This document shows, piece after piece, positions 28,474 to 33,108 of a stretch of DNA of 64,000 nucleotides. Source of the DNA: a phage; sequence record PX915678.1; one strand, 5' to 3'. Both the position numbers and the translations under genes were made by a program. The notes under the pieces were generated by a model. The model was not told the origin of the DNA. It worked only from the letters and a program-made list of their open reading frames with translations, and did no database searches. Position 1 is the stretch's first letter. The number at the start of each line of letters is the position of its first letter.

Positions 28474-28992
28474 TCAATAACCTCGGTCTTGACGAGCGAA
28501 GTTTTCAGCATTTTTCAGATAATAAAGTTTAAAGATTTCTTCAGCAGTAAGACCGAGACCTTGGAACATGTTCAGAACGAAATGAAGAATATCAATCATT
28601 TCGAATTTAATTTCCAACTGGTCTTGTGGAGACAAATCAGTAATTAAAGTTTCACGGCGTTCACCGTGTTGCGACTTCCAAGGTTTCCATACAGCAGATG
28701 CATCTTTTTCACCATTGCTCATACCACCAAGAGAAGTCAGAAGTTCGCGGAATTCATCATCAATATAATCTTTCTGATTACGCAGCCAATCAACAACTTC
28801 ACCTGCAGTAGCCAAATCATCAGGATGATGGTTATATTCAGGTTTATCTTTAGCTAAACGAACCTGCAGAGATTTCTGCATATCAAGCATAACCTGCAGC
28901 GGGTCTTTTTCATCACCGAGAATATCCCAGTATTCATTTTGAGCTTTATCAGCGCCTTCAATCAGTTGACTACATTCATTAAAGTAAGCCAT
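28474..28992 (-). CDS. 56: dCTP pyrophosphatase gp56 (dCTPase-dUTPase)
   Basis: ATG at 28990..28992 with AAGGA SD (track start 29085 upstream); N-terminus MAYFNEC..., strongly similar to T4 gp56 as recalled. Confidence 0.85.
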   Translation of the reverse strand: MAYFNECSQLIEGADKAQNEYWDILGDEKDPLQVMLDMQKSLQVRLAKDKPEYNHHPDDLATAGEVVDWLRNQKDYIDDEFRELLTSLGGMSNGEKDASAVWKPWKSQHGERRETLITDLSPQDQLEIKFEMIDILHFVLNMFQGLGLTAEEIFKLYYLKNAENFARQDRGY

Positions 28993-29063: not shown

Positions 29064-29264
29064 ATGGTACAAAAATTAATGGCACTTGTTAATGCCATAA
29101 AAGGTAATAAAAAACGTATAGCTTTTACTATTTCTGCTATGGTAGGAATTTTACTCTGGAATTTTGTTTTATCACCAATTGCTATTGCTCATGGTGTTAA
29201 TATTCCAGTAATTACTCTTGATACATTCGTAGATTTAGCATTTGCTTTGGTTGGGTTAATTTAA
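29064..29264 (+). CDS. Plus-strand small membrane protein (66 aa) between genes 56 and 61
   Basis: ATG with strong AAGGAGGA SD; two hydrophobic segments; only plus-strand ORF in a minus-strand block, convergent with gene 61. Confidence 0.4.
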   Translation: MVQKLMALVNAIKGNKKRIAFTISAMVGILLWNFVLSPIAIAHGVNIPVITLDTFVDLAFALVGLI

Positions 29265-30289
29265 ATCTTAGCATATTTAGATAGCCGCATTTTAGCCATC
29301 AACCCTTGGGCAATATTATTTTTCATATATTCCATAATTTGTTCAGGGGTTGCACCTTCCTTTCTAATCATATCATTAACATCTTTTGATTTCCAGGGAG
29401 ATTTATCCCAAAACATAACCCTTTCTCCTGCATCAACTAATTTAGTCATTCGTTTAATAGTGTCAGGGTGACGAGGTTCATTATCTAAAACCCATACACG
29501 TCTATCTTTAAATGGAACAATTTCTAGGTCTAATTGACCACCCGTAATAGCTATACCATTTTCAATAAAAAGCGAATCTATAGGTCCTTCTAGAACATAT
29601 ACATCGCCATCTTTGACTCGTTCAACTCCATAGATTTTTGTTGCCTCAGGATAAGCTTTGATGGTGATATATTTTTGAGGAGCATCTTTCTTTAATGCAC
29701 GTCCTTGAAAAGACTCGGCTTTTCCGTTAGCATTATAAATTGGAATAACAAGACGAGGCTCGGGCATTTCCTTTTTATATGTTCCTGGCGCTATACTATT
29801 AACTAATTTAGGCCATTCGGTTGTAAACCAAAGATATTTCCATTTATCCTTTGGAATACAACGAGCTTTTACATATTTTATAATTGGATGGTCTTCCGCC
29901 AGTTTATCTAGTCTAATGCATGACGGAAGAGATTTAATTATTTTCTTCTCAGGTTGTTTAGGAAGTTCTTTAGGTTTTTCTACTGGACGACTTTTACCTT
30001 TTTCTTTTCTTATTTCAAAGATATATTCACGATATAAATCAGGTTCAAACTCCTTTAAATATATTCCGATTGGTGCATGATAGTTACAGTTATAACAATG
30101 AATATTTCCTTCATTATTATCGCCATAATACCATCCACGGGCTTTATTTTGATCGGTTTTTGAATCTCCACAAACAGGACATCTAAACCGTAATTTAAAA
30201 GTTGAACTATTATTTACTTGTGCGAATTTAGGTAAATGAGCCAATGCACGGTATGCAAACTCATTATCAATCCAAGGTATTGATGACAT
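29261..30289 (-). CDS. 61: DNA primase gp61
   Basis: 342 aa as in T4 gp61; zinc ribbon CPVCGDS...CYNC and TOPRIM region. Confidence 0.9.
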   Translation of the reverse strand: MSSIPWIDNEFAYRALAHLPKFAQVNNSSTFKLRFRCPVCGDSKTDQNKARGWYYGDNNEGNIHCYNCNYHAPIGIYLKEFEPDLYREYIFEIRKEKGKSRPVEKPKELPKQPEKKIIKSLPSCIRLDKLAEDHPIIKYVKARCIPKDKWKYLWFTTEWPKLVNSIAPGTYKKEMPEPRLVIPIYNANGKAESFQGRALKKDAPQKYITIKAYPEATKIYGVERVKDGDVYVLEGPIDSLFIENGIAITGGQLDLEIVPFKDRRVWVLDNEPRHPDTIKRMTKLVDAGERVMFWDKSPWKSKDVNDMIRKEGATPEQIMEYMKNNIAQGLMAKMRLSKYAKI

Positions 30290-30291
30290 TT

Positions 30292-30456
30292 TTACTCTTC
30301 TTTTTCTTTAGATTCCTCTTTTTTCTTTTTAGGAATCTGTTCAGGACCTTTATTTACTACAGCACCTGACGTTGTTCCAGTGGAGATATTTTCAGGATTA
30401 CCACCTGAATCTCCAGCGACCATATCTTCTTTAATAAATTCTTTATATGTTTTCAT
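30292..30456 (-). CDS. Small acidic/basic protein (54 aa; 61.1 position)
   Basis: GAGGT SD then ATG at 30454..30456; ends 2 nt before gene 61 start; not in ORF track. Confidence 0.45.
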   Translation of the reverse strand: MKTYKEFIKEDMVAGDSGGNPENISTGTTSGAVVNKGPEQIPKKKKEESKEKEE

Positions 30457-30457
30457 A

Positions 30458-30814
30458 TTAACCTCTATTCATAAAAGCATTAAAAATTTGGTCATCAATC
30501 GATGGAATAGCAACTTTTTCTGCATCATTTAGCAAATCATTAATTTCATCAGATAGCATAACGCATGTACCTTTATTTCCTGTAATTGTTACTGCGCAAT
30601 TACGAACGTTTTCTTTATCAAATTTTAGGTTAATATTTTCGTAGTGAAAATCCTTTAATGCCGAATATATTTTTAAAATGAAATTGTCTTTTACTACAAT
30701 AAACCCAACTTCACTATTAAAACGTGGTTCATGGAAACTGTAATAAACCTTTTCATCTATAAAATCGTATGAAATTTTTTCCATTTTTAAATATGAAAAT
30801 TCAGAACTGTACAT
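30458..30814 (-). CDS. Hypothetical protein (118 aa; 61.2 position)
   Basis: Track ORF. Confidence 0.6.
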   Translation of the reverse strand: MYSSEFSYLKMEKISYDFIDEKVYYSFHEPRFNSEVGFIVVKDNFILKIYSALKDFHYENINLKFDKENVRNCAVTITGNKGTCVMLSDEINDLLNDAEKVAIPSIDDQIFNAFMNRG

Positions 30815-30826
30815 ACTAACCTCTAA

Positions 30827-31120
30827 TTACTCACCTACCACTTCAGCGATGATATTTTTATTATTAAAGTTTTTATCGCAATACAGAACATAATTATACT
30901 GCATTACACCGCCAGACTTAAGTTGTTTTTGCACTTCAGCTTTCATTTCAGGACGATCACGCTCAACGATATTCATAATATCCGCTTCAATTTGAGTTTC
31001 AACCTCAGTCTGATCTGCAGTCATAGACCACTCACACAAATCTTTGTCATAACCCGCCATAGCAGGCTGAGCAGCACAAGAAGATAAAGCAAAAATTGCA
31101 GCAAAGATAAATTTTTTCAT
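30827..31120 (-). CDS. sp: Secreted periplasmic protein, likely Spackle (Sp) superinfection-exclusion lysozyme inhibitor
   Basis: 97 aa with signal peptide MKKFIFAAIFALSSCAAQPAMA; GAGGAG SD; size and position match T4 sp (61.3) as recalled. Confidence 0.55.
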   Translation of the reverse strand: MKKFIFAAIFALSSCAAQPAMAGYDKDLCEWSMTADQTEVETQIEADIMNIVERDRPEMKAEVQKQLKSGGVMQYNYVLYCDKNFNNKNIIAEVVGE

Positions 31121-31148
31121 GATAATCTCCTCAGTAGTTTATGTTTAT

Positions 31149-31178
31149 ATAGTATCTCAATTTCCAATAAAAGTAAAC
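31149..31178 (-). promoter_or_regulatory. Early promoter upstream of the sp-like gene
   Basis: GTTTAC (31173..31178), 18 nt, TACTAT (31149..31154). Confidence 0.5.
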
Positions 31179-31180
31179 AG

Positions 31181-31438
31181 CTATTTTAAAACTTCTGCAT
31201 AATCACATGTTACAAACTGTTTCTCTAACTTGACGATTTTACGAAAGTATCTTTTGCATTGACGAATCTGTCGCTTCGTAGGACGCACAGCAAACTTAAT
31301 AAATTCCACTCGACCAAATGGAGGACTTTCTTCTGCCGGAATATCTAATACTAATTCCCACGTATCTGCGATAAGTGCTTTAAATTGAGTATTTTTCCTG
31401 ACGTTATACGGTGTAGGTTTAAATAAAACAATATGCAT
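31181..31438 (-). CDS. Small basic protein (85 aa) immediately downstream of dmd (61.4 position)
   Basis: ATG at 31436..31438 with GAGGA SD, 1 nt after dmd stop; basic C-terminus KRQIRQCKRYFRKIVK. Confidence 0.55.
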   Translation of the reverse strand: MHIVLFKPTPYNVRKNTQFKALIADTWELVLDIPAEESPPFGRVEFIKFAVRPTKRQIRQCKRYFRKIVKLEKQFVTCDYAEVLK

Positions 31439-31439
31439 A

Positions 31440-31622
31440 TTATCCTCGGCAATCCACTTCGCATACTTTCTTGTCATCAATGAAAGCTTTAACTAATGCT
31501 TTATTAACTTCAGCATATTGGGTAGTAGCCCATTGAACGTCATCTTTCATCATTGTGATTTCTTTAGTAAACATGCTTTCATTCTTAAACCACCCCATAA
31601 AAACTACCTTTACCAATTCCAT
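31440..31622 (-). CDS. dmd: Dmd antitoxin-mimic (inhibitor of host RnlA/LsoA toxins)
   Basis: 60 aa; MELVKVVFMGWFKNESMFTKEI... matches T4 Dmd as recalled; GAGGAG SD. Confidence 0.8.
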   Translation of the reverse strand: MELVKVVFMGWFKNESMFTKEITMMKDDVQWATTQYAEVNKALVKAFIDDKKVCEVDCRG

Positions 31623-31651
31623 AACAATCTCCTCATTTAACCAACAAGACT

Positions 31652-31681
31652 ACTATACCATAGTCTTGTCGGCTTGTAAAC
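31652..31681 (-). promoter_or_regulatory. Early promoter for dmd with -10 inside an 8-bp hairpin
   Basis: GTTTAC (31676..31681), 18 nt, TATAGT (31652..31657); inverted repeat CAAGACTA...TAGTCTTG at 31645..31668. Confidence 0.5.
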
Positions 31682-33108
31682 TAAAATTTTAATTCATTTG
31701 CCAAAGCATCTAACTGAGCTCGAGCGGATTCGTTTCTTTGATAGCGATTCTGTTCAGCCTGAATCTGCTGTGAACCTGCTACTTCGTTCACTTCGGTTGG
31801 AGTAGAATCTTGCTCAATTTCTACCCATTTTTGATTTCCTTTTTGAACACCCATTAAAAACTTATTCCATTTATTCTTATCACCATATCGTGATTTGATT
31901 TGCTTAATGAGTTGTTGTTCAGCAGCTGCTAACTCCTCGGTTTCAATGACCGCAAGCATAAAATCGGCTGTTGCTGGAAGACCGGCAGATTCCGCAATAT
32001 CGCTCATGTTAACATCAGAAGAATCCCAAGCTTGTTTACCAACCTGTGCTGCAGTCCAAAGAACAGTTTCAGTTTCAACAGCCAGAGCACGCAATTCCTC
32101 TGCGATAGCTTTAACAGTTGTGTAACTATTTTCTGAATAAACTCTGATGCGGCAAGATTTACAAATACCTAGATAGTCAACAATAATGATTGTTGGAACA
32201 AAATTCTTCTTGAGCTTCAATTCGTTTAAAAGCGATCGAAATGTGTTAGCGTCTGCTCCACCAGTAGGATATTGCTTAACGATTAAACGGCCGAGAGTAG
32301 ATTTCTCACGCCATTTTTCCATTTTTCCTTTATACTCAGCGTAAGAAATATGCCCGTCATCAATGTCATCAAGAGAAACATCAAGCATATTAGCGTCAAT
32401 ACGCTTAGCACAGACTTCTTCTGCCATTTCCATTGAAATGTAAAGAACATTATGACCGAGCTGTAAATAATCTGCTGCCAATGAACACAATCCTAATGAC
32501 TTACCAACGTTAACACCAGCCATTAAAACGTTCAGTGTTCCAGTTTCAGCTCCGCCTTTAGTAATTTTATTTAGAATTTTGAGTTTAAATGGAACCTTAC
32601 GAGCTTTATTCATATAAGATAGCCAACGTGCTTCGTAGTCATCCATCCAATCATGACCAACGTAACTATCAAATGAAATTGATAATGCTTGACGCATGAT
32701 GTCAGGAATAGCACCAACATCCGGCATTTTCTTATTTCGTTTTTCCGGAGGAAGCTCAGCATTGGTTTGAATTTCAATTATTTTAGACGTAGCATTAAAC
32801 ATCGCTCTTTGCTGAACATATTTTTCTGTTTCTTTTACTAACCAGCTGTGGTCTTCTGGAGAATCGGCTAGTTTCGAAATAAGTGTTTTTACACCAGAAT
32901 ATTCTGTTTCAGTAAATGAACTATTTTCTAATGCAACATTTAACGCATTAATAGATGGAACGCTATGGTACTCATTAACATGAGATTTAATTAATTTGAA
33001 TGTATTTTTAGCTGGACCACTTTCAAAATATTCTGAATCCATATATGGCCAAACTTTTGAAAAATAAGCTTGATCAAATATGAGATGAGAAAGAATAATT
33101 TCTACCAC
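31681..33108 (-). CDS. 41: Replicative DNA helicase gp41 (DnaB-like)
   Basis: 475 aa as in T4 gp41; Walker A GAGVNVGKS region. Confidence 0.9.
   Translation of the reverse strand: MVEIILSHLIFDQAYFSKVWPYMDSEYFESGPAKNTFKLIKSHVNEYHSVPSINALNVALENSSFTETEYSGVKTLISKLADSPEDHSWLVKETEKYVQQRAMFNATSKIIEIQTNAELPPEKRNKKMPDVGAIPDIMRQALSISFDSYVGHDWMDDYEARWLSYMNKARKVPFKLKILNKITKGGAETGTLNVLMAGVNVGKSLGLCSLAADYLQLGHNVLYISMEMAEEVCAKRIDANMLDVSLDDIDDGHISYAEYKGKMEKWREKSTLGRLIVKQYPTGGADANTFRSLLNELKLKKNFVPTIIIVDYLGICKSCRIRVYSENSYTTVKAIAEELRALAVETETVLWTAAQVGKQAWDSSDVNMSDIAESAGLPATADFMLAVIETEELAAAEQQLIKQIKSRYGDKNKWNKFLMGVQKGNQKWVEIEQDSTPTEVNEVAGSQQIQAEQNRYQRNESARAQLDALANELKF

Follow-up and report, generated by a model that had tools for sequence, protein, structure and literature searches.

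The window (the whole 64,000-nucleotide stretch of phage DNA analysed, sequence record PX915678.1) carries a compact run of small ORFs between primase 61 and helicase 41, which raises the question of whether these are genes, which known factors they correspond to and whether together they make up a counter-defence hotspot, as was originally predicted from the letters of the sequence.

An anti-TA island between genes 61 and 41

As predicted, five small minus-strand ORFs (60, 85, 97, 118 and 54 aa) lie between the 342-aa ORF of primase 61 (29261-30289) and the 475-aa ORF of helicase 41 (31681-33108). Matches to the 1.5-kb interval came from 510 phage records, Tequatrovirus with few exceptions, at 90-99% identity; the best whole-interval match reached 97.9%, so the window comes from one more isolate of a common type. 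Pfam's curated cut-off was passed by four of the five proteins, NCBIfam gave no match for any of the five, and dN/dS lies at 0.12-0.27 for the two uncharacterised ORFs. On the strength of the 510 records, the Pfam matches and these ratios, the five ORFs are genes and not chance ORFs.

Comparison with the T4 61.1 to 61.5 products, proposed with the prediction as a way of checking it, revealed identities to the proteins of the T4 reference record of 60/60 for Dmd, 84/85 for gp61.4 (TifA), 94/97 for Spackle (Sp) and 52/54 for gp61.1, with the 118-aa protein differing from 61.2/AdfA. The 41-to-61 interval of T4-like phages has been called an "anti-TA island", with Dmd directed against RnlA, TifA against ToxN and AdfA/61.2 against DarT (Srikant et al. 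2022, PMC9391042). The window resembles the T4 island (dmd, tifA/61.4, sp, adfA/61.2, 61.1) in position, order, strand, spacing and an early promoter upstream of dmd, whereas the place between sp and 61.1 is taken in T4 by a 208-aa two-domain adfA and in the window by a 118-aa single-domain gene. T2 and RB32 show the window's five genes in unchanged order, with point differences only. We consider it very probable that the interval is the anti-TA island of T-even phages in its T2/RB32 arrangement, organised as two minus-strand transcription units and with the gene roles proposed here. Unit 1 would comprise dmd and tifA, coupled by TAA-T-ATG, behind an early promoter that lies within a stem-loop, and unit 2 would comprise sp, the 118-aa gene and 61.1, continuing into primase 61.

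The idea of a counter-defence hotspot was right, and the place already had its name; the main points of the original prediction stand in the literature of 2022-2023, such that the system is known. That prediction had linked the interval to inhibition of both toxin-antitoxin and DNA ADP-ribosylation defences, and the first part holds, with published anti-TA activity for Dmd and TifA, but the second does not carry over directly, as canonical AdfA/gp61.2 is absent from the window and the 118-aa gene stands in its place. Judged from its genes, we predict that the phage withstands RnlAB, LsoAB and chromosomal ToxIN as T4 does. The practical value of these assignments is annotation.

The dmd-tifA unit and its transcription signals

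The 60-aa product of dmd (gene 61.5; 31440..31622, minus strand) matches the Pfam family Dmd (PF17587) over its full length (residues 1-60/60; 156.9 bits against a cut-off of 27, 1.6e-46) and the solved chain 5hy3_B, "Antitoxin Dmd", at 1.8e-37, and together with the complete identity to T4 Dmd this confirms the name first given to the ORF. T4 Dmd directly binds and inhibits the RnlA and LsoA toxins, according to work cited in PMC9391042, and from its identity to the T4 protein the window Dmd would be expected to block both of these RNase toxins.

Upstream of dmd, an early-promoter-like site (31652..31680, minus strand) consists of TTTACA, a 17-nt spacer and TATAGT with an extended TG, and with 10/12 consensus matches it is the highest-scoring site of the region. 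Transcription of the dmd-61.4 pair depends on a T4 early promoter (PMC9391042), and the candidate site fits that published promoter. It is overlapped by a 15-bp stem-loop (31639..31674, minus strand; -23.1 kcal/mol, z = -4.5, with 0/200 shuffles folding equally well), such that the -10 hexamer falls within the loop and the 3' arm. Composite terminator/promoter elements made of an early promoter and a stem-loop, termed PeSL, have been described from hyperplastic regions of T4-like phages (PMC4122927), and the overlap of promoter-like site and hairpin in the 41-dmd spacer may represent a PeSL-type layout, the likeness being one of layout. The stem-loop can form only in RNA that reads through from gene 41. 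A second promoter is possible in the 60-nt spacer between tifA and sp, where a candidate picked out by eye (31149..31177, minus strand; TTTACT, a 17-nt spacer, TACTAT) agrees with the sigma-70 consensus at 8/12 positions and scores under the cut-off applied to the dmd site; a promoter downstream of tifA is mentioned in PMC9391042.

The 85-aa ORF (31181..31438, minus strand) had been singled out as the most interesting unknown of the cluster, strongly basic at its C-terminus and possibly an RNA binder. Its junction with dmd reads ...GGA TAA T ATG CAT..., such that it starts 1 nt past the dmd stop, as described, and it shares an operon with dmd behind the promoter-like site. Its product belongs to DUF7279 (PF23945; 72.7 bits against a cut-off of 24.5, 2.3e-20) and differs from T4 gp61.4 by a single change, I83V. 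It is no unknown, because function and mechanism of this protein are published: T4 escapes toxIN by amplification of the dmd-61.4 operon, 61.4 was renamed tifA (Srikant et al. 2022, PMC9391042), and the 85-aa TifA protein was shown to inhibit ToxN and to co-precipitate with it (PMC9391042) and to bind RNA (Guegler et al. 2023, PMC10853763), with a Pro53-Thr54-capped basic helix (K55, R56, R59) needed for both RNA binding and ToxN inhibition (PMC10853763). The suggestion of an RNA binder was sound, and binding through the basic helix was already in print. The basic stretch itself is real and lies at residues 52-73 (RPTKRQIRQCKRYFRKIVKLEK; 10 Lys/Arg and 1 Glu), although the final 12 residues lack this basic character.

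With V51 R52 P53 T54 K55 R56 Q57 I58 R59, the window TifA keeps the Pro-Thr cap and all of the needed basic residues. It would bind ToxN and RNA through the capped basic helix and trap ToxN on bulk RNA, a mechanism published for a variant one conservative residue away. Residue 41 tunes the potency of TifA, with Phe weak and Ser or His strong (PMC10853763), and the window copy has Phe, the weak T4-type allele, from which we predict T4-like strength, sufficient against chromosomal toxIN and not against plasmid-borne toxIN. RB69 TifA belongs to the same family and has the same P-T-K-R-Q-I-R basic helix, whereas it is without the C-terminal extension, carries His41 and is the stronger inhibitor; it is 57% identical to the window copy, next to a published figure of 56% for RB69 versus T4 TifA (PMC9391042).

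Two TifA-like genes, of 98 aa and 73 aa and each with an RPTKRQIR motif, are present in the island of phage VR25 (L006 707-1003 and 2159-2380), one beside dmd and the other after the gene of the short AdfA-like type, which points to paralogous inhibitors of the ToxN type that differ in specificity.

The 118-aa gene, AdfA and the shared tail

The gene in the place of adfA (30458..30814, minus strand) corresponds to RB32ORF033c (96% identical) and to T2 "61.2" (94%), and these two together with about 295 other records span 94-100% identity, such that the gene occurs in about 300 sequenced T4-like phages. Pfam, BLASTP, hhalign and an AF2 model relate its product, as a single domain, to the C-terminal half of AdfA. 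The Pfam AdfA profile (PF23813) is matched at 34.1 bits, above the gathering cut-off of 27 (2.3e-08), a score to be read against the 22-26 bits that related short proteins reach through the tail alone. The match covers positions 113-211 of the 211-position profile, whereas T4 AdfA covers 1-211; AdfA proteins are about 208-216 aa long with two domains spanning the whole profile, and the 118-aa protein is half as long and without the N-terminal domain. Against the C-half of T4 AdfA, BLASTP gave 1e-09 at 35% identity, 14 of the identities being the last 14 residues. With the tail removed, hhalign still aligned the short family with the AdfA C-half (P = 2.5e-5, 84 collinear columns) and, more weakly, with the N-half (P = 2e-3). 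AdfA and the 118-aa protein have in common the C-terminal domain, its strand-helix order and an invariant tail.

AF2 modelled the 118-aa protein with confidence (pLDDT 83, pTM 0.72). Five strands are followed by a helix, a short strand and another helix, after which a low-confidence linker leads to the last helix at 106-115; the order of five strands, helix and short strand is the same as in each half of the AdfA model. As that model of the T4-type protein, of moderate confidence (pLDDT 72), shows the five-strand-plus-helix pattern twice, AdfA looks like a tandem of the 118-aa domain. An internal duplication of AdfA sought by sequence gave a weak signal (BLASTP E 0.011, hhalign P = 2e-3), leaving the pattern in the pLDDT 72 model as its main basis. 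Foldseek searches of BFVD with the 118-aa model found a 212-aa protein of AdfA length (31% identical) and a 145-aa type, and fold searches returned no functional analogue.

Junction searches revealed sp leading into the 118-aa gene in 141 phage records and adfA leading into it, with both genes present, in 159, against 487 records with adfA overall. Since the gene coexists with adfA and is under purifying selection (dN/dS 0.17-0.27), it is a paralogue and not an allele or a wreck of adfA. Relatives of the same length, at 28-47% identity, occur in Gaprivervirus and other Tevenvirinae genera. A profile search of the family against 1.84 billion representatives yielded only 9 clusters, all phage-like and short, with no bacterial relatives, and thus lends no support to descent from a host antitoxin of the kind seen for AdfN/DarG.

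The protein ends in SIDDQIFNAFMNRG, encoded at 30458..30499 on the minus strand (codons S-I-D-D-Q-I-F-N-A-F-M-N-R-G-stop). The consensus DDQIFNAFM[NK]R[GD] was kept in 21/21 aligned sequences and ends all AdfA, all short relatives and the third, 145-aa type at the same locus. Within IMG/VR the motif was found in 16 stretches, almost all on contigs of T4-like genome size (about 115-172 kb), each tailed ORF being one of the three gene types. The 145-aa body has no detectable sequence relation to AdfA or to the short type (hhalign P about 0.1), and the 145-aa type was rejected as a counterpart of the AdfA N-domain (hhalign P = 0.09), a shared fold being suggested only by Foldseek with a score that includes the identical tail (E 9e-5, TMq 0.57). 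Adjacent 145-aa and 119-aa genes that both end in DDQIFNAFMKR[DG] were seen in VR25 (L006 1359-1796 and 1798-2157) and also in two further loci (L007 and L008), all of Gaprivervirus type.

In our preferred reading of the interval, the 118-aa protein has a single beta5-alpha domain where AdfA has two, with a flexible linker and a short amphipathic helix behind it, and by analogy with AdfA may act as a stoichiometric, protein-binding inhibitor. We infer that the tail may be a docking helix for a constant partner and that the body sets specificity. Beyond this, we tentatively propose that the 118-aa gene belongs to a distinct class of single-domain phage inhibitors, that AdfA arose from such a domain by tandem duplication or fusion, and that the DDQIFNAFM helix docks one constant partner, a reading that we hold to be possible but not probable. 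If this is true, the constant partner could be a toxin surface that is conserved or a hub protein of phage or host, the bodies, being variable, would determine which toxin is neutralised, and the inhibitor of the window phage would act on a host defence still to be paired with it. The tail would also offer a cheap handle on how AdfA-type inhibitors engage their targets.

The tail could instead be kept for reasons of DNA or RNA, as a homology arm for cassette exchange, as part of the ribosome-binding region of the next gene or as both. In phages with two tailed genes its codons form direct repeats of about 45 nt that flank the 118-aa gene; the three arrangements observed (adfA only, the short gene only and both) are those expected from recombination between repeats, and PeSL-type shuffling is documented in T4-like phages (PMC4122927). 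The last tail codons, AGA GGT, form the Shine-Dalgarno sequence for 61.1, which follows in AGA GGT TAA T ATG, the TAA-T-ATG junction having the same spacing as that of dmd and the 85-aa ORF. Against this stands the pattern of variation across 12 copies, in which 6/8 degenerate codons of DDQIFNAF vary synonymously and 0 non-synonymously, with DDQIFNAFM fixed, such that the peptide itself is under selection; the Shine-Dalgarno sequence covers only the last two codons, and it is these terminal residues (N/K, R, G/D) that vary. We regard a purely nucleic-acid reason for the tail as rather unlikely, and the tail-codon repeats could nonetheless mediate gain and loss of the cassette. Separately, a role of the tail as a gp45 clamp-binding motif is only remotely conceivable, as the gp43 SLDFLFG and gp55 ends are only loosely like SIDDQIFNAFMNRG and the PIP-box spacing is wrong.

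If the 118-aa protein were simply a short AdfA directed against DarT1, the window would keep an anti-DarTG1 factor in the interval. The identical tail speaks for this, as does the position of the residue that decides DarT1 neutralisation, RB69 AdfA residue 164 (His in the active T4 protein, R164 in the inactive RB69 protein; PMC11825919), which lies in the C-half of AdfA, the part homologous to the 118-aa protein. However, the active histidine is missing at the aligned position, which is occupied by Cys73 according to BLASTP or by the adjacent Asn according to MAFFT, neither of them the inactive Arg. In addition, T2 is said to "naturally lack an adfA homolog", and its DarTG1 resistance was mapped to adfN (gene 30.3) (PMC11825919); as T2 carries the 118-aa gene in the 94% identical form, sharing domain and tail with AdfA although the phage is called adfA-less, this argues against a DarT1 role. 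An anti-DarT1 function appears decidedly unlikely, and the Cys in place of the specificity His makes a toxin or allele other than DarT1 the more probable target.

It is highly improbable that the 118-aa ORF represents adfA in decay, a pseudogene that has lost its N-terminal part and has no function of its own, for although its AdfA match is limited to the C-terminal half and the spacer before it resembles an adfA-type end, as after deletion of adfA from a two-gene arrangement, an identity of about 35% to the AdfA C-half means that it is not a recent truncation, and the intact adfA alongside it in 159 records, the low dN/dS, the same-length relatives in other genera and the confident model all speak against decay. 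The spacer in question, 12 nt between sp and the 118-aa gene (30815-30826), reads TTAGAGGTTAGT and is close to the adfA-type gene end ATAGAGGTTAAT, a likeness consistent with the window arrangement having been derived by adfA deletion in a two-gene ancestor.

Spackle, gp61.1 and the surrounding genes

The 97-aa signal-peptide protein (sp; 30827..31120, minus strand) is Spackle, as had been proposed, with a full-length Pfam T4_Spackle match (PF25676; 1-96/96, 153.3 bits, 2.8e-45) and a match to PDB 6x6o at 1.1e-60. Because the solved mature chain 7cn6 corresponds to residues 23-97, the signal peptide of 22 residues is confirmed. Spackle is an exported periplasmic inhibitor of the gp5 tail lysozyme of superinfecting phage and acts in superinfection exclusion. 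Its placement within a counter-defence cluster was mistaken to that extent, as it is a superinfection-exclusion protein and not a counter-defence factor; as part of unit 2 it would be exported and would block the gp5 lysozyme of superinfecting phage.

The last of the five genes, 61.1 (30292..30456, minus strand), encodes a glycine-rich protein of 54 aa with a Lys/Glu tail that matches phrog_1823 at 7e-34 and has neither a Pfam match nor a role assigned to it in the literature. Its homologues are found only in T4-like phages, none of them with an informative name, and dN/dS against T4 is 0.12, indicating purifying selection. The label "major capsid domain-containing protein" that it bears in several records looks like a propagated misannotation. 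The conserved gp61.1 core (DMVAGDSGG.P..I..GTT.GAVVNKGPEQIP.KK) recurs as the C-terminal portion of longer proteins, of 92 aa in RB69 and of 156 aa in phrog_2086 (positions 109-154).

Further differences among T4-like phages were seen in and around the interval. In RB69 the 41-to-61 interval (L004 818-4399) holds twelve genes against five, the slot being plastic, with imm, imm.1, ORF032c, ORF033c, ORF040c, ORF041c and the 92-aa 61.1 as extras. Downstream of primase 61, T4 has dam, whereas no Dam-sized ORF was seen there in the window, where the place is taken by a 66-aa hydrophobic ORF (29064-29264, plus strand) homologous to RB32ORF030w. Beyond it lies a 172-aa ORF (28474-28992, minus strand) that is annotated as dCTPase in a 97.8%-identical phage.
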